Shown: in pieces, positions 5,463-18,349 of the stretch
Position numbering within the stretch: the stretch's first letter is position 1
Layout: each line of letters opens with the position of its first letter
DNA from: Chloroflexota bacterium
GTDB lineage: Bacteria; Chloroflexota; Anaerolineae; Anaerolineales; Villigracilaceae
Direction of reading: 5' to 3'
DNA length: 64,000 nucleotides
Assembly: GCA_013152325.1 (NCBI GenBank)
Contig: JAADGN010000045.1
Coordinates: 18,310 to 82,309, forward strand
Made by a program: the position numbers and the translations under genes
Notes under the pieces: model-generated
The model's input: the letters and a program-made list of their open reading frames with translations, nothing else
Database searches by the model: none
Told to the model about the DNA's origin: nothing

Positions 5463-5669
5463 CTAGCCCGGCGCGAAGAGATAGATATAAGCGCCAAGCG
5501 CAATCAGAGCAATGAGGATGAGCGCCACCCATCCAATGGGGGTGCTCATCATTCCGGCCATCATCGCCATGCCCCCCATGGCCATGCCTCCGCCGAGCAG
5601 CGCCAACAAGGCGACCAGCAGGACGACGCCAACGATGATCAGCAATACGGTTCCCGCATCTGGTTTCAC
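5463..5669 (-). CDS. small two-helix membrane protein with Met/Gly-rich loop (GGGMAMGGMAMMAGMM)
   Basis: GTG at 5669 is preceded by AAAGGAGG (AAAGGAGGCTGCGTG). The product is 68 aa; the longer track ORF (to 5846) overlaps copA. Confidence 0.6.
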   Translation of the reverse strand: MKPDAGTVLLIIVGVVLLVALLALLGGGMAMGGMAMMAGMMSTPIGWVALILIALIALGAYIYLFAPG

Positions 5670-5790: not shown

Positions 5791-8262
<2,472 letters not shown>

Positions 8263-8309: not shown

Positions 8310-8621
8310 TCACCTGTGTTTCTGTTCCGAGTTCAGAGGGTAGGAAACCCGGGTAAGTATCTGGTACAACAAAATCAGGCGTTGCAGGGCCTGTCCACGC
8401 TCTTGAGAGCAATCGCTGTATTGGATGACCTTCCGGCTCTCTTGAAGCTGCTCGTCGATCATCAGCCGGGCGGCAGCGTGCAGCGCCGCCTGGACTGCGT
8501 TCAGTTGATGGAGCACTTTTCCACACGGTTCGCCAGCCTCCACCATCGCGACCACGGATTGCAGGTGGCCTTTGGCGGATTGCAGGCGGCGAACGACGGG
8601 GTTGCTGCGCTCAAGGGACAT
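8310..8621 (-). CDS. CsoR/RcnR-family (DUF156) transcriptional repressor with non-canonical ligand fingerprint
   Basis: [62 protein letters not shown]... The first Cys is conserved. The residues 25 and 29 positions after it are Q and S, not the H and C of Cu(I)-sensing CsoR. The start may be 8621 or 8633. Confidence 0.8.
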
Positions 8622-8979
8622 GGGTCCATTCATCCACAGACAGGGGCGACAGAGCCGACCGGATGGTCGCCTCCAGGTCGCGGCCGGGAGGGTGGCCGGG
8701 GGAATGCGCCAGGGCCGCCTCCGTTTGTCCGTTGTGCGAGTGAACGATAATGGAAGCCGGGGAGTCCTCGCCCTGATACGCCAGCAAGACGACCAGTTGA
8801 CAATCGCAGGGAACTGTGCCGTGGTGCGGGCAGGCGAGATCGGGGAACGAGGCGCAGGCAGACCGCAAATCAAAGGAACGCACCACGCGTATCCCTGAAC
8901 GCTCCAGGCGTTGGGTAATTTGCTGAATGGCGGTCTCGCAATCCGCTCTCAGAATTGACAAATGGTTGGTCTGGTTCAT
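8611..8979 (-). CDS. uncharacterised Cys/His-rich small protein, paralog A (VVRSFDL...C-x-CPHHG-x5-CDCQ...VLL.Y)
   Basis: 122 aa from the ATG at 8979. It is the first gene after the predicted minus-strand promoter at 9027-9055, and its end overlaps the csoR-like start. It is clearly alignable to the product of 14157-14501. Confidence 0.75.
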   Translation of the reverse strand: MNQTNHLSILRADCETAIQQITQRLERSGIRVVRSFDLRSACASFPDLACPHHGTVPCDCQLVVLLAYQGEDSPASIIVHSHNGQTEAALAHSPGHPPGRDLEATIRSALSPLSVDEWTHVP

Positions 8980-8991
8980 CGCGTTTCTCGT

Positions 8992-9017
8992 TTGTGGCAC
9001 TTTTTTGTGGCACTTTT
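8992..9017. repeat. perfect tandem direct repeat 2 x 13 bp (TTGTGGCACTTTT) in the 5' UTR of the cop unit
   Basis: Read directly: 8992-9004 and 9005-9017 are identical. Each unit contains the mini-palindrome GTGGCAC. The repeat lies between the predicted -10 (9027-9032) and the start codon (8979). Confidence 0.8.
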
Positions 9018-9026
9018 CGTAGCCCC

Positions 9027-9055
9027 AGTATATGCAGCGCACCCCTGAAACGCCA
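9027..9055 (-). promoter_or_regulatory. predicted promoter P1-minus (TGGCGT-17-TATACT) for the cop/ccdA unit
   Basis: On the minus strand: -35 TGGCGT (9055-9050), 17-nt spacer, -10 TATACT (9032-9027). It begins exactly 23 nt from the 7-2-7 repeat. Confidence 0.6.
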
Positions 9056-9078
9056 GCGCCATTTGCCGCATTGACAGG

Positions 9079-9094
9079 TAAGCAATTTTGCCTA
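9079..9094. promoter_or_regulatory. 7-2-7 inverted repeat, site 1 (TAAGCAA-TT-TTGCCTA), shared by divergent promoters
   Basis: It is part of a longer palindrome, CAGGTAAGCAATTTTGCCTACCTG (9075-9098). It lies 23 nt from a -35 hexamer on both strands. Confidence 0.7.
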
Positions 9095-13665: not shown

Positions 13666-14154
13666 TCAGGCCAACAAGCGCATGATGATGATGCCGTCTT
13701 CGACCTTGTACTCGTAACGATCCAGGGGACGCGGCGGAGGCCCCTTGGTGACGTTGCCCTCGATGTCATAGCGCCCGTCATGGCAGGGACAGATGTACTC
13801 CTGGGCGTCCGTGTGCCAAGCCACCCGGCAACTGAGATGCGTGCAGACATTGGAGAACACGACCAGGTCCGTCTCGGATTTGCGCCACACATAAACACCG
13901 TAGGAATTGGAGGTCTTCTCCCAACCGTTGACCCTCGCCCGCGTAAAGGTGAAGAGCGCGGGCGCGCCGACGGGATAGTCCGTCAACTTGCCCAACGGGA
14001 TCCAATCATCCAATTTCTGGGTTTTCACAGCAGGCCCAATCAGGTAGCCGATGATGGGCAGACCGACGACGGCCCCCATGATCGAACCCAGGAGCAGCGT
14101 GACGAATTTGACAAATTCCCTCCTGCTGAGACGTGAGCCGGATTTCGCCGTCAT
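13666..14154 (-). CDS. Rieske [2Fe-2S] protein with Tat-type signal anchor
   Basis: CTHLSCRV...CPCHDGRY Rieske boxes and N-terminal SRLSRREFVKFVTLLLG. The ATG at 14154 lies 2 nt after the upstream stop. Confidence 0.9.
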   Translation of the reverse strand: MTAKSGSRLSRREFVKFVTLLLGSIMGAVVGLPIIGYLIGPAVKTQKLDDWIPLGKLTDYPVGAPALFTFTRARVNGWEKTSNSYGVYVWRKSETDLVVFSNVCTHLSCRVAWHTDAQEYICPCHDGRYDIEGNVTKGPPPRPLDRYEYKVEDGIIIMRLLA

Positions 14155-14156
14155 TG

Positions 14157-14501
14157 CTAGCTCCTTAAAGTCGGAGAGAACGCGTCCTGGATGGTCTGCG
14201 TCAGCTCTTCGGCTTGTGGACATTCCTCTCCCCAACTCAAGTACGTGGCCCCGTCATGCCCATGCGCGACCAGCGAGACCGGCCGGTCGGCGGTGAGATA
14301 GATGAGCAGCACGATCATCTGGCAGTCGCATTCCGCCATCCCGTGATGGGGGCAGGTGCAGCCTGGGTGTACTGCCCGCGCACGTTGAAAGTCGAACGAG
14401 CGCACCACCTGGAAACCGGAGTCGGCCAAGTGCCGCGTCAAGCGCGCGATGACGGCTTCGCAGTCGTCGGAGACGTTGAACAGGGGAACGGATGGGGTCA
14501 T
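14157..14501 (-). CDS. uncharacterised Cys/His-rich small protein, paralog B (VVRSFDF...CTCPHHG-x5-CDCQMIVLLIY)
   Basis: 114 aa from the ATG at 14501. The predicted promoter at 14524-14552 excludes the longer track start at 14552. It aligns with 8611-8979. Confidence 0.75.
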   Translation of the reverse strand: MTPSVPLFNVSDDCEAVIARLTRHLADSGFQVVRSFDFQRARAVHPGCTCPHHGMAECDCQMIVLLIYLTADRPVSLVAHGHDGATYLSWGEECPQAEELTQTIQDAFSPTLRS

Positions 14502-14523: not shown

Positions 14524-14552
14524 AGTATAAGGAGTCCGCCCGCAATCCCCAA
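14524..14552 (-). promoter_or_regulatory. predicted promoter P2-minus (TTGGGG-17-TATACT)
   Basis: On the minus strand: -35 at 14552-14547, 17-nt spacer, -10 at 14529-14524. It lies 23 nt from repeat site 2. Confidence 0.6.
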
Positions 14553-14575
14553 GCGCTATTTGACGCATCGCCGGG

Positions 14576-14591
14576 TAAGCCATTTTGCCTA
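14576..14591. promoter_or_regulatory. 7-2-7 inverted repeat, site 2 (TAAGCCA-TT-TTGCCTA)
   Basis: Read directly. The same half-sites and central TT occur at the other four sites. Confidence 0.7.
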
Positions 14592-14724: not shown

Positions 14725-15171
14725 ATGTCCAAAACCATTTCACCCAAATACCTGCTGATTGCAGCAGTCTTTGTCGTTTCCGCGTTGGCGCTGACCGCCT
14801 GTGGAAGCGCCGGCGCGAACACGCCTGATGTTGTGGAAGTCCAGGTCACGTTGACCGAATTCGCCTTCGAATCATCGATCACGACCTTCGAAGTGGGCGT
14901 ACCCTACCGTTTCGTGATCACCAACAAGGGCGCGATACCGCACGAGCTGATGATCATTCCAAAATTGGACAAGTCTGCCTCAGACGCTGACATGGAAGCG
15001 ATAGACGAACTGGCGCTGGCCGTTGTCGAAGAAGACGAGTTGCCTGCCGGAGCGACGGCTACGCTTGATTACACCTTCACCGAACCGGCCGATTCCGGCA
15101 AGTTGGAATTCGCCTGCTACCTGCCCGGGCACTATGAATCCGGCATGTACCTGCCGATCACGGTGCGCTAA
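14725..15171 (+). CDS. lipoprotein with type-1 (blue) copper cupredoxin domain
   Basis: Lipobox ALALTAC. Cupredoxin ligands are H (GAIPHEL) and C-x4-H-x4-M (FACYLPGHYESGM). AAGGAGAA lies upstream. Confidence 0.8.
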   Translation: MSKTISPKYLLIAAVFVVSALALTACGSAGANTPDVVEVQVTLTEFAFESSITTFEVGVPYRFVITNKGAIPHELMIIPKLDKSASDADMEAIDELALAVVEEDELPAGATATLDYTFTEPADSGKLEFACYLPGHYESGMYLPITVR

Positions 15172-15230: not shown

Positions 15231-15250
15231 CATTATTCGACGCCCCCCTG

Positions 15251-15266
15251 TAAGCCATTTTGCCTG
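15251..15266. promoter_or_regulatory. 7-2-7 inverted repeat, site 3 (TAAGCCA-TT-TTGCCTG)
   Basis: Read directly. It lies 23 nt upstream of ATGTCT. Confidence 0.7.
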
Positions 15267-15341: not shown

Positions 15342-16454
15342 ATGACCGTCCCTCTCGCCCGCCGCAACATCTTTCACGAAAAAGGCAAACTGGCCCTGAG
15401 CGTGGCCGGGGTGGCCGCCTCGCTGGCGCTCATCCTGCTCCTGATGGGCTTCAAGGAGGGCCTCTACGCCACCCTGACCGCCTACGTGGACAACATCGGC
15501 GCGGACCTGATCGTCGCCCAAAGCGGCGTGCAGGGCATGTTCTCCTCGAACTCGGCGCTGGCGCTGGACATCCACGACGCGGCCGCGGCGGCTGGCGGCG
15601 CGGAACAGGCCGGTCACATCATCATCTCGGACATCATCTTCACCCGCGGCGAGACCAAGACCCCCGTCCTGCTGGTCGGCTACGACCCGCAGACCACCTT
15701 CGGCAGCCCCTGGGAGATCGGCGCCGGTCGCGGCGTCGAGAGGGCGGGCGAAATCCTGCTCGATACCTACCTGGCCCAGCGCAGCGACATCGCCCTGGGC
15801 GACCGCGTCGACGTGCTGGGACGGGATTTCACCGTCGTCGGGCTGACGCGCGGCACCTCCTCCTGGATGAGCCCCTATATCTTCCTCTCGCTGGACGACG
15901 CCGAGGCCGCCCTGGGACTCTCCGGCATCGTCAGTTATCACCTGCTGCGCCTGCCGGAGGGCGTGGACCCGCAGGAGGCCGCCAAGGCGGTCGAAGCCGC
16001 CGTCCCCGGCGTGGACGCCATGACGCCGGACGAGATCGCCAGCGCCGACCGCCGCGTGCTCGCCAACATCATGGACACGCCCATCAACGTGATGCTCTTC
16101 ATCGGCGTGATCATCGGCATCGCAGTGATGAGCCTGACCGCCTACACCGCCGTGGCCGACCAGATGCGCGAGTACGGCGTGCTCAAGGCCATTGGCGCCA
16201 GCCGCGCCCGCCTGATGCGTCTGGTCGCAGCGGAGACGCTCATCCGCGCCGGGCTGGGGTACCTTCTGGGGACAGGCCTCTCGCTGCTGACGGCGGCGCT
16301 CATCATGGCCCGCTGGCCGCAGTTCAGCATCCTCATCCGCCCGGAGACCATCCTGCAAGCCGGCGGGCTGACCCTGCTGATGAGCCTGGTCGCCGCCCTG
16401 CTGCCCATCCGGCGGCTGGACCAGATCGACCCGCTGCTGGTGTTTAAAACGTAA
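15342..16454 (+). CDS. ABC transporter permease, FtsX/MacB-like
   Basis: 370 aa with an N-terminal TM, a large extracytoplasmic domain, and C-terminal FtsX-type helices (REYGVLKAIGASRARL). Confidence 0.85.
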   Translation: MTVPLARRNIFHEKGKLALSVAGVAASLALILLLMGFKEGLYATLTAYVDNIGADLIVAQSGVQGMFSSNSALALDIHDAAAAAGGAEQAGHIIISDIIFTRGETKTPVLLVGYDPQTTFGSPWEIGAGRGVERAGEILLDTYLAQRSDIALGDRVDVLGRDFTVVGLTRGTSSWMSPYIFLSLDDAEAALGLSGIVSYHLLRLPEGVDPQEAAKAVEAAVPGVDAMTPDEIASADRRVLANIMDTPINVMLFIGVIIGIAVMSLTAYTAVADQMREYGVLKAIGASRARLMRLVAAETLIRAGLGYLLGTGLSLLTAALIMARWPQFSILIRPETILQAGGLTLLMSLVAALLPIRRLDQIDPLLVFKT

Positions 16455-16460
16455 TTTAAT

Positions 16461-16499
16461 TTGAAGTGACCGGCACTTTGAAAGTGCCGGTCACTTCAA
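16461..16499 (+). other. perfect 39-nt palindrome / long hairpin between the two permease genes
   Basis: TTGAAGTGACCGGCACTTT-G-AAAGTGCCGGTCACTTCAA. No U-tract follows; the next RBS (GGAGAA) comes immediately after. Confidence 0.8.
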
Positions 16500-16511
16500 G
16501 CTGGAGAACTC

Positions 16512-17624
16512 ATGTTCAAACTCGCCTGGCACAATCTCACCCATGAGCGCACCCGCCTCGCCATCAGCGTGGGCGGCGTGGCGCTGGCCGTGCTGCTCAT
16601 CCTGATCATGGCGGGCGTGTTCGCCGGTTCGGAGGAGCACGCCGTCGCCTACATCAAGAACCAGCCCGCCCCGCTGTGGCTGATGCAGGAGGGCGTCGCC
16701 AACATGCACATGTCCTCCTCCATCCTGCCGCCGGATGCGGTCGTGCGGGCGCGCGCCGTCGAAGGCGTCCGGGAGGCCGTCGGGTTGCTGTACGCCAACG
16801 CCGGCGTGGACGTGGGCGGCAGCCTGATCTACAGCTACATCTTTGCGGTGGAGAACGGCGCCCCCTTCGGCGGTCCCTGGAAACTGGCCGAGGGCACCGC
16901 CAACCTGGAACCGGACGAGGCCATCATCGACAAGGAGCTGGCCGCCCGTTACGGCATCGGCCTGGGCGATACCGTCGAGATATTGGGGTATGACCTGACC
17001 CTGGCCGGGCTGAGCGAGGGGACGTTCGGCATCGCCACCAGCATCTCCTTCGTCAACAAGCAGGTGCTGGCCGCCCTGATGGGCGTCCCGCCGGAGGCCG
17101 CCAGTTACATCCTCGTCCAGCCCGAACCGGGCGTGGACCTGGGGGCCCTCGCCGACCGCCTGCGGGAGGCCGTCCCTGAAGCCAACCTGATGACCCAGGA
17201 AGCCTTCGCCGCCAGCGACCAGGAGATGATCCGTCAGATGGGGGCCGACATCCTGCAGGCCATGAATATCGTGGCCTACATCGTCGGGCTGCTGGTCATC
17301 GGGCTGACGATCTACACCGCCACCCTGGAGCGCGCCCGCGAGTACGGTGTGCTGAAAGCCATCGGCGCGAACACCTTCCACCTGATGCAGGTCGTCTTCG
17401 TACAGGCCTTCATCAGCACCGCGCTGGGCTTCGCGGCCGGCGTCGGGTTGTCCTACGCGGTCGCCGCGCTGGTGAGCCGCCTGTACCCCGAAATGCTGGT
17501 GCTGATCGAACCGGAGACCCTGCTGCAACAGATCCCCGTGCTGCTGGTCGTGACCGGCCTGGCCGCCCTGCTCCCGCTGGGACGCATCGCCCGCCTGGAT
17601 CCGGTCTCGGTTTTCAAGGCATGA
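16512..17624 (+). CDS. ABC transporter permease, FtsX/MacB-like (second copy)
   Basis: 370 aa with the same architecture as 15342-16454 (REYGVLKAIGANTFHL). Confidence 0.85.
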   Translation: MFKLAWHNLTHERTRLAISVGGVALAVLLILIMAGVFAGSEEHAVAYIKNQPAPLWLMQEGVANMHMSSSILPPDAVVRARAVEGVREAVGLLYANAGVDVGGSLIYSYIFAVENGAPFGGPWKLAEGTANLEPDEAIIDKELAARYGIGLGDTVEILGYDLTLAGLSEGTFGIATSISFVNKQVLAALMGVPPEAASYILVQPEPGVDLGALADRLREAVPEANLMTQEAFAASDQEMIRQMGADILQAMNIVAYIVGLLVIGLTIYTATLERAREYGVLKAIGANTFHLMQVVFVQAFISTALGFAAGVGLSYAVAALVSRLYPEMLVLIEPETLLQQIPVLLVVTGLAALLPLGRIARLDPVSVFKA

Positions 17625-18349
17625 AAATGGAGAATCCTATGGACAACGTCCTCGAATTGCAAAGCGTGACCAAAACTTACGGCAGCGGACACACCGCCGT
17701 CACCGCCGTACGCGGCGCGGACCTGCGGGTGCGCCCCGGCGAGATCGTGCTCATCATGGGGCCATCAGGCAGCGGCAAGACCACCCTGCTCAGCATGGCC
17801 GGACTGCTGCTGGGCCCCAGCGCGGGACACATCTCGGTCGTCGGGCGGGAGGTCAACGGCCTGAGCCAGCGTCAACTGGCCGCGCTGCGCCTGCGCAAAC
17901 TGGGATTCGTCTTCCAGGCCTACAACCTGCTGGGCGCGCTGACCGCCCGCGAGAACGTGGAACTGGTGATGAACCTGGCCGGGAAGCGCGGCGCTCCCGC
18001 CCGCCAGCGCGCCGGGGAACTGCTCGACATGCTGGGGCTGGGACACCGCCTGAACCACCGCCCCGCCGACCTCTCCGGCGGCGAGAAGCAGCGCGTCGCC
18101 ATCGCCCGCGCCCTCGCCAACGACCCGCCCCTCATCCTGGCCGACGAACCCACCGGCAACCTGGACAGCAAGACCGGGCGCGAGGTGATGGAGCTGCTCT
18201 GCTGCGGCCTGGGGCGCGATCAGGGGCGCGCCATCGTCATCGTCACCCACGACCACCGCCTGAAGGAGATCGCCGACCGCGTGCTGTGGCTGGAGGACGG
18301 ACGCCTGAGCCGCGTCCCTGACGGCGAGGCCGCCTATGCAGCAGCGTGA
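17621..18349 (+). CDS. ABC transporter ATP-binding protein (MacB/LolD-like)
   Basis: Walker [10 protein letters not shown], signature [15 protein letters not shown], Walker B LILADEPT. Its ATG overlaps the permease stop (ATGA). Confidence 0.9.

Follow-up and report, generated by a model that had tools for sequence, protein, structure and literature searches.

A Cys/His-rich protein family at the head of copper operons in Chloroflexota, probably a new kind of copper-binding helper protein

Two short genes of related sequence lie on the minus strand of a 64,000-nucleotide (nt) stretch of DNA from a Chloroflexota bacterium (the window, meaning this whole stretch), and the question that they raise is what their Cys/His-rich products do. 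The two genes, here called copies A and B, are:

8611..8979, minus strand: copy A (P0001), 122 amino acids (aa), first gene of the cop unit; motif SAC42AS...C50PHHGTVPC58DC60Q...H80SH82
14157..14501, minus strand: copy B (P0002), 114 aa, opening a two-gene unit whose second gene encodes a Rieske protein; motif C48TC50PHHGMAEC58DC60Q...H80GH82

They belong to a family of cytoplasmic, folded proteins with a conserved Cys4/His site. The family gene is promoter-proximal in a conserved copper regulon and is associated with genes for copper efflux, oxidase and sensing functions. The family probably represents a new kind of copper-binding helper protein.

Both open reading frames exist as described in an earlier note on this DNA. 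BLASTP gave 45/100 identities between the two products (E 3e-29), slightly above the approximately 40% identity over about 85 residues that the note had estimated, and the four Cys and four His proposed to be common to the pair are present (Cys14/50/58/60 and His52/53/80/82). The proposed C-x-CPHHG pattern applies to copy B (C-T-C-PHHG) but not to copy A, which reads D-L-A-C-PHHG and has Cys42 instead of Cys48. The predicted gene junctions were also recovered: the stop codon of copy A (8611-8613) overlaps the start of the CsoR-like gene, which begins at 8621, or at 8633 if an earlier ATG is used, and the stop codon of copy B (14157-14159) is followed after 2 nt by the ATG of the Rieske gene at 14154. 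No signal peptide had been expected, and indeed both N-termini are non-hydrophobic, with a beta strand placed there by the structural models. The genes upstream, encoding a beta-CASP nuclease (copy A) and a cupredoxin-like lipoprotein (copy B), are divergent, and each copy is therefore the first gene of its own unit. The ratio of nonsynonymous to synonymous substitutions (dN/dS) is 0.04-0.15 for copy B and 0.30 for copy A; both are therefore protein-coding genes under purifying selection, with copy A less constrained than copy B. A profile search of the organism's own genome (2.9 Mb, 154 contigs, 92% complete) found only these two copies, and both units are kept in the same synteny in the close relatives L128 and L129. 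The closest orthologues of copy A (L128:6001-6369 and L129:4338-4727) are substituted at otherwise invariant residues, P51L in L128 and G54E in L129.

Conservation of the Cys/His site was counted over 78 unique homologues, for which two independent alignments agree. Residues F36, P51, H53, G54, C58, C60, Q61 and Y68 are 100% conserved, closely followed by C50 (99%), H80 (97%), D37 (97%), T55 (95%) and H52 (94%), and lower conservation was found for C48 (86%), C14 (65%) and H82 (28%). The Cys/His positions that the earlier note wanted to see retained in homologues thus hold at 97-100% for C50, C58, C60, H53 and H80, and the core motif of the family can be written as C-x-C-P-H-H-G-T-x2-C-(D)-C-Q, plus His80. 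The fourth Cys shifts in position, being at 48 in 66 sequences, at 42 in four (including copy A) and at 52 in three, and at least four Cys occur within residues 38-61 in 73/78 sequences. A Cys count that is kept while the position moves would be the pattern expected under selection on ligand number, and therefore fits selection on a set of ligands. In the clade of L028, L035 and L052, Cys48 is lost and His52 is replaced by Cys, giving a V-C-P-C-H-G motif that reads like Rieske box II, with the Cys count still at four.

Several known metal-binding motifs were compared with this site. No match to PF00403 (HMA/CopZ) was found for copies A and B or for the 81 family members, and MxCxxC is absent from both copies. 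A relation to CopY/CopR found no support from Penicillinase_R/BlaI-type Pfam models; the CxC pairs are spaced by x7 and the motif is internal. The CDGSH motif is C-x-C-x2-(S/T)-x3-P-x-C-D-G-(S/A/T)-H. It had no Pfam match at E≤5 among the 81 members, and the CxC-x7-CDC-Q of the family lacks G-x-H after CD.

Whether this is a named domain of unknown function (DUF) had been asked in the earlier note. Copies A and B have no Pfam or NCBIfam match at E≤1 and the family is unnamed. No consistent match emerged when the 81 members were compared with Pfam at E≤5, and a sequence search of the PDB with the family profile gave nothing beyond noise (E>0.5). In a collection of 5.8 billion proteins, 120 relatives were found, all unnamed or annotated as 'hypothetical', the few labelled ones being from Anaerolineales or Chloroflexi; exhaustive phmmer searching gave 455 clusters at 50% identity (E≤1e-3). 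With one genome taken per species, 142 stretches encode a relative, and the best 80 of these 142 are nearly all from Chloroflexota metagenome-assembled genomes (MAGs) of Anaerolineae, Chloroflexia, Caldilineaceae and Promineifilaceae. The few non-Chloroflexota cases among these best 80 are short, possibly mis-binned contigs. The family is almost confined to Chloroflexota MAGs, and within the order of the window it occurs in 32/121 searched genomes. Fused domains were sought in the ten longest homologues, which contain no Pfam domain; the extra length looks like mis-called starts, and domain fusion was discarded. A literature search found no paper containing 'CPHHG'.

Confident AlphaFold2 models of copies A and B (predicted local distance difference test scores of 81 and 86, respectively) have the same order of elements, beta1-alpha1-beta2-alpha2-loop-beta3-beta4-beta5-alpha3, and the Cys/His motif falls within the loop, at residues 45-60. 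For both models, the top PDB matches found with Foldseek are DUF302 structures (probability 0.99-1.00, template modelling (TM) score 0.46-0.53). Model A matched 1j3m (probability 0.99, TM 0.52), and model B matched 1q9u (E 2e-3, probability 1.00) and 1j3m (probability 1.00). Both models thus match the fold of TT1751 (1J3M) and 1Q9U, but distantly, the TM score being only about 0.5. At the sequence level, PF03625 matched neither copies A and B (E≤1) nor the 81 members (E≤5), and a genome-wide PF03625 scan found a canonical DUF302 only on contig C10. We built an alignment of canonical DUF302 sequences from the own genome and relatives and compared it with the family profile by hhalign, which gave a probability of 38% and an E-value of 3.3e-4 over 77 columns. 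In this alignment, the DUF302 helical hairpin GACNP...LPCN is deleted from the family, which retains of LPC only the Pro, and canonical DUF302 has no counterpart of the inserted Cys/His loop. On the basis of the models, the family is predicted to have a distant DUF302-like fold that falls outside PF03625 by the Pfam criterion. An enzyme fold had been named in the earlier note as a result that would speak against its proposal; the fold obtained is distantly DUF302-like and is no known enzyme.

The likeness to DUF302 (PF03625, represented by 1J3M, TT1751 of Thermus thermophilus, and 1Q9U of Geobacillus stearothermophilus) consists of the beta-alpha-beta-alpha...beta-beta-beta-alpha order common to both, an N-terminal stretch of the form 'xxEAVxxxTxxLxxxGFxVxxxxD' and the Pro at the start of strand 4, and DUF302 genes are found in some of the same islands as the family gene. 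The two differ in that the family lacks the GACNP...LPCN helical hairpin, whereas canonical DUF302 proteins lack the Cys/His loop. The literature on DUF302 gave no function; the domain occurs in sox clusters (PMC5037610). Canonical DUF302 genes adjoin rhodanese genes in the own genome (C10:180-927) and in L098, L060 (12790-13164), L072 (14206-14598) and L087 (13491-13865); in the last three, which are Chloroflexia genomes, the DUF302/rhodanese pair lies within the copper island of the family gene.

The two copies share an arrangement of promoter elements:

9078..9094, minus strand: 7-2-7 palindrome TAGGCAAAATTGCTTAC, upstream of copy A
9055..9064, minus strand: second promoter box AAATGGCGCT of copy A, in the same register in most related loci
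9027..9032, minus strand: TATACT -10-like box of copy A, 46 nt downstream of the palindrome
14575..14591, minus strand: 7-2-7 palindrome TAGGCAAAATGGCTTAC, upstream of copy B, in an intergenic region common with the divergent cupredoxin-like gene at 14725-15171
14552..14561, minus strand: second promoter box AAATAGCGCT of copy B
14524..14529, minus strand: TATACT -10-like box of copy B, with the identical 46-nt spacing from the palindrome

The 7-2-7 palindrome TAGGCAAAATKGCTTAC has three matches in the window, against 0.09 expected, and no -35 consensus was found at the family promoters. The element TAGGCAAAATTGCCTA (at most four mismatches) occurs 80-140 nt before the start of the family gene in 48/81 loci, mostly at 85-100 nt, compared with 16/400 random 250-nt control windows. 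The conserved module consists of the palindrome, about 11 nt, AAATGGCGCT, about 22 nt, TATACT, 20-45 nt and the ATG. The 7-2-7/TATACT promoter that the earlier note placed before both copies is therefore real, and the same operator/TATACT promoter precedes the family gene in most related loci. The third palindrome, CAGGCAAAATGGCTTAC at 15250-15266, lies before an operon for a MacB/FtsX-type ABC transporter (15342-18349) that is not headed by a family gene. The leader of copy A also contains a 13-bp tandem repeat, GTGCCACAAAAAA GTGCCACAAA (minus strand, window 8992-9017). As a general operator for CsoR-like proteins this repeat was rejected, since the leaders of other CsoR-linked loci show nothing comparable.

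The genes behind the two copies in the window include:

8310..8621, minus strand: CsoR-family gene (PF02583, E 3.6e-14), translationally coupled to copy A
5791..8259, minus strand: CopA-type P1B ATPase whose N-terminus has two HMA domains; lies downstream of the CsoR-like gene
13666..14154, minus strand: Rieske [2Fe-2S] protein with the twin-arginine-like N-terminus SRLSRREFVKF, 2 nt after copy B

The N-terminus of the Rieske protein scored 13.9 bits with the twin-arginine translocation (TAT) model, below the cut-off of 16.7 bits. The cop unit of the window continues with genes for YHS, CcdA, DUF3105, DUF2085, a regulator and a kinase. To see what accompanies the family gene elsewhere, 80 other loci were searched by tblastn with the proteins of the window and of related islands. 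Many contigs are short, so the neighbour counts are minima, and they are descriptive only, as related genomes are not independent:

YHS near the family gene: 41/80 loci
DUF2085 near the family gene: 35/80 loci, 33 of them downstream within 3 kb
GerE-type response regulator near the family gene: 35/80 loci
HisKA_3 kinase near the family gene: 32/80 loci
CopA near the family gene: 27/80 loci
CcdA-type DsbD_TM near the family gene: 22/80 loci
CsoR near the family gene: 17/80 loci
rhodanese near the family gene: 15/80 loci
Rieske near the family gene, or divergent from it: 14/80 loci

Redoxin genes are present in the islands of 16/80 loci. The co-occurrence with csoR and copA that the earlier note wished to see checked is thus found, csoR, copA and other copper genes being linked to the family gene in these 80 further loci. 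The copper-gene neighbours are mostly downstream on the same strand, and in nearly every locus the family gene heads the same-strand run. Several gene orders recur, which can be written, with X for the family gene, as X>CsoR>CopA>74-aa protein, X>DUF2085>regulator>kinase, X>multicopper oxidase>YtkA>DUF3105>DUF2085>regulator>kinase, X>CopA, X>YHS and X>cupredoxin. In L074 (8458-9958), L089 (8368-9998) and L054 (1852-3042), the gene directly after the family gene encodes a two-domain multicopper oxidase and the next one a YtkA/FixH-like protein, with DUF3105, DUF2085 and the two-component system behind them. A membrane protein of about 70 aa is encoded directly after copA in 11/80 loci (L003:7558-7782 and ten more), and at about 5463-5669 in the window. 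DUF2085 occurs in 120/121 genomes of the order, and its co-occurrence across the order was set aside as uninformative; no paper linking DUF2085 with copper was found in a literature search.

Both arrangements of the window stand side by side in L003, an independent Anaerolineales genome. In a maximum-likelihood tree, the two copies of the window are far apart, and the L003 paralogues, one CsoR-linked and one Rieske-linked, are sisters. One clade is mostly CsoR-linked and its sister clade is linked to two-component systems, and CsoR linkage recurs in other clades. The tree rules out clean orthologous A-type and B-type subfamilies. Gene context is labile on the tree, which fits a general role with no specific partner.

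The CsoR-like neighbour of copy A is unusual in its metal site. The Cu(I) ligands of CsoR are two Cys and one His (PMC7558416). In a gap-free alignment to 2hh7, the window protein has C33/Q58/S62 opposite C36/H61/C65 of Mycobacterium tuberculosis CsoR, and it lacks two of the three Cu(I) ligands. Of the 18 complete CsoR-like genes found next to a family gene, 14 are without the His, the second Cys or both, and in three of these 14 the first Cys is missing as well. These ligand-poor genes, of the C-Q-S, C-N-R and similar types, are those of the window, L025, L027, L033, L034, L038, L045, L056, L069, L071, L079, L083, L111 and L112. Many of the adjacent CsoR-like proteins have an extra Cys in helix 1 (RRLRCAxGHL). 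CsoR genes that do not adjoin a family gene are canonical C-H-C, save for one W-H-C and one W-Q-A variant, the latter of unknown context. In an order-wide PF02583 scan, the adjacent CsoR genes score lowest (43-68 bits versus 75-103 bits). A strict rule that an adjacent CsoR always lacks the ligands had to be dropped, as four adjacent proteins keep C-H-C (L028, L108-L110).

All refuting conditions set in the earlier note that the analysis covered turned out in favour of its proposal. The earlier note had further stated that the island has no CopZ-type HMA chaperone. This holds for the window, which contains no stand-alone HMA gene, but not for the genome: contig C109 (2058-3313) carries, in one minus-strand run, csoR of the canonical type (95 bits), copZ as a 95-aa HMA frame, and copA, so that besides the island the organism possesses a standard operon for copper efflux. 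The idea that the family replaces a missing CopZ was abandoned at the genome level because of the 95-aa HMA frame between csoR and copA. In some related islands, a small HMA gene lies beside the family gene.

These observations are best accommodated, in a tentative reading to which we give a little under an even chance, by a cytoplasmic Cu(I)-thiolate-binding buffer or chaperone. We infer that the bound metal is Cu(I) from the copper context and the doubled CxC motifs; Cu(I) is favoured because of the gene context and because doubled CxC is typical of Cu(I)-cluster ligands, as in CopY. CXC motifs bind Cu(I) in CopY/CopR, and in Enterococcus hirae CopY two Cu(I) displace Zn; copper chaperones need not share a fold, as CupA has a cupredoxin fold unrelated to CopZ (PMC5646241). 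The scaffold would be a trimmed DUF302-like alpha/beta domain, in which the loop between helix 2 and strand 3 (C-x-C-P-H-H-G-T-x2-C-x-C-Q) and His80 on the next hairpin most likely form a thiolate-rich site, and a Cu(I) cluster may form across a dimer. The family gene stands directly behind the activator-dependent promoter of the local copper regulon, whose 7-2-7 palindrome is probably bound by the NarL-type response regulator of the island. Because of this position, the family protein would be made first and in quantity when the regulon fires. It could then capture cytoplasmic Cu(I) and hand it on, or signal its presence, to proteins encoded in the same operon, which for copy A would be CopA and the CsoR-like repressor that lacks Cu(I) ligands of its own. 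The scheme also has putative elements, namely the stoichiometry, dimerisation, the transfer of Cu and any contact of the family protein with CopA or with the CsoR-like protein.

Several points weigh against a Cu(I) buffer or chaperone. The Cys4 site could just as well be a structural Zn site. The C-x-C...C-D-C pattern bears what we take to be a loose resemblance to CDGSH and Rieske-type Fe-S motifs, without a Pfam match. In 36/48 loci with at least 4 kb downstream, a regulator gene is carried in the same run, which fits signalling equally well. The copy A lineage has the P51L (L128) and G54E (L129) substitutions and a dN/dS above that of copy B, which could reflect relaxed constraint or MAG assembly errors. 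The genome encodes csoR-copZ-copA and some related islands have small HMA genes, and the family protein is therefore not simply a CopZ substitute.

The regulator genes bring up the main rival, namely that the family protein is a copper-sensing or feedback subunit of the island regulators, which we regard as possible, if on the unlikely side. Once loaded with Cu(I), the family protein would bind a partner, either the CsoR-like repressor that is short of ligands or the DUF2085/HisKA_3 kinase module, and so give metal responsiveness to proteins without a metal site. In this it would resemble the small feedback proteins encoded by the first gene in other envelope-stress systems. The regulators in the 36/48 loci, all in the same run and within 4 kb, are CsoR-like in 13 and two-component systems in 23, and translational coupling to the CsoR-like gene occurs in the window, L128 and L129. 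The loss of the Cu(I) triad from 14/18 adjacent CsoR-like proteins (three without the first Cys), while distant CsoR genes keep it, and their PF02583 scores, the lowest in the order, agree with such a partnership, as does the division of sister clades into one mainly CsoR-linked and one linked to two-component systems. However, no regulator is encoded in the operon of copy B or in those of a quarter of the long loci, the four adjacent CsoR proteins of L028 and L108-L110 retain C-H-C, and the CsoR-linked and Rieske-linked paralogues of L003 are closest relatives, so that partner specificity is not evident. A bolder version, which we consider unlikely, is that the family serves as a detachable module for Cu(I) sensing. 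Made first from each operon of the regulon, the module would be loaded with Cu(I) on its CxC/HH/CxC cluster site and confer copper responsiveness on partners whose metal site was lost or never existed, namely C-Q-S type CsoR-like repressors and the DUF2085/HisKA_3 kinase. If true, this would split a one-protein metal sensor into two proteins and give the DUF302 fold superfamily its first functional assignment.

The remaining explanations assign a different chemistry to the site. Rather unlikely in our judgement is an Fe-S or Zn protein, in which a [2Fe-2S] cluster or Zn would occupy the Cys4/His site and the protein would serve a redox or cofactor-assembly role, by protecting, repairing or delivering cofactors to the exported Rieske protein, cytochromes and multicopper oxidase while copper poisons Fe-S assembly, or alternatively by supplying electrons to the CcdA/redoxin branch. 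The Tat-type Rieske gene 2 nt after copy B, a pairing that is also present in L003/L004, L128 and L129, is in line with this, as are the Rieske genes near or divergent from the family gene (14/80 loci) and the CcdA-type (22/80) and redoxin (16/80) genes. Rieske box II is CPCHG and the short form of the CDGSH motif is CxC-x8-CDGxH; the family motif has a loose likeness to both, and one clade reads CPCHG. Yet no Pfam Fe-S family was matched by the 81 members, most loci pair the family gene with CopA, CsoR or a two-component system rather than with Fe-S proteins, and doubled CxC is more typical of Cu(I)/metallothionein-type clusters. A protein without metal, with the Cys as structural disulfides or as a catalytic thiol site for sulfur/persulfide chemistry, seems improbable. 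It would agree with the position of canonical DUF302 genes next to rhodanese genes in the own genome and relatives, including three family islands, with the rhodanese genes near the family gene (in L008 and L012, and in 15/80 loci) and with DUF302 in sox clusters (PMC5037610). Stable disulfides are unlikely in a cytoplasmic protein, however, the invariant His53, His80 and Gln61 beside the Cys point to metal ligation, and the Cys of canonical DUF302 (GACNP, LPCN) differ from those conserved in the family.

Set beside known copper systems, a Cu(I) buffer or chaperone of this kind has partial parallels. CopZ/Atx1-type HMA chaperones (PF00403) are also small cytoplasmic proteins encoded before csoR and copA, as in the copZ-csoR-copA gene order of Thermus, and they handle Cu(I) for CopA and the repressor, the role presumed here. 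The family differs from them in lacking the HMA fold and MxCxxC, and it coexists with a real CopZ in the own genome. MymT of M. tuberculosis belongs to the RicR regulon, which comprises several short operons with one common palindromic operator. MymT itself is a small, Cys-rich, copper-induced Cu(I)-binding protein (PMC7558416) and in this respect can be likened to the family. It is a 4.9-kDa metallothionein that folds around the metal, whereas the family protein is a folded domain of 12-14 kDa with 4-5 Cys, and the regulator here is probably a two-component activator and not a CsoR-type repressor. With CopY/CopR, the family shares two CxC pairs close together, which in CopY bind Zn or two Cu(I) (PMC5646241). 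In CopY, the CxC-x4-CxC is in the C-terminal tail, whereas the CxC-x7-CxC of the family, with PHHG between the pairs, is in an internal alpha/beta loop, and the family has no winged-helix DNA-binding domain. A precedent for a non-HMA copper chaperone encoded between repressor and copA is CupA of Streptococcus pneumoniae (PMC5646241), which differs in being membrane-anchored, with a cupredoxin fold and Cys/Met sites.

The family marks the head of most operons in a conserved Chloroflexota copper regulon. Chloroflexota are abundant in wastewater, subsurface and hot-spring communities, and to our knowledge their copper handling is essentially unstudied. The pairing with CsoR-like proteins that lack the triad offers a testable case of how a degenerate metal sensor persists in a copper operon. 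If the family protein binds Cu(I), it would be a new structural class beside the HMA/CopZ, CupA, Csp3 and MymT cytoplasmic chaperones and buffers, and would provide a first clue to what the DUF302 fold does.

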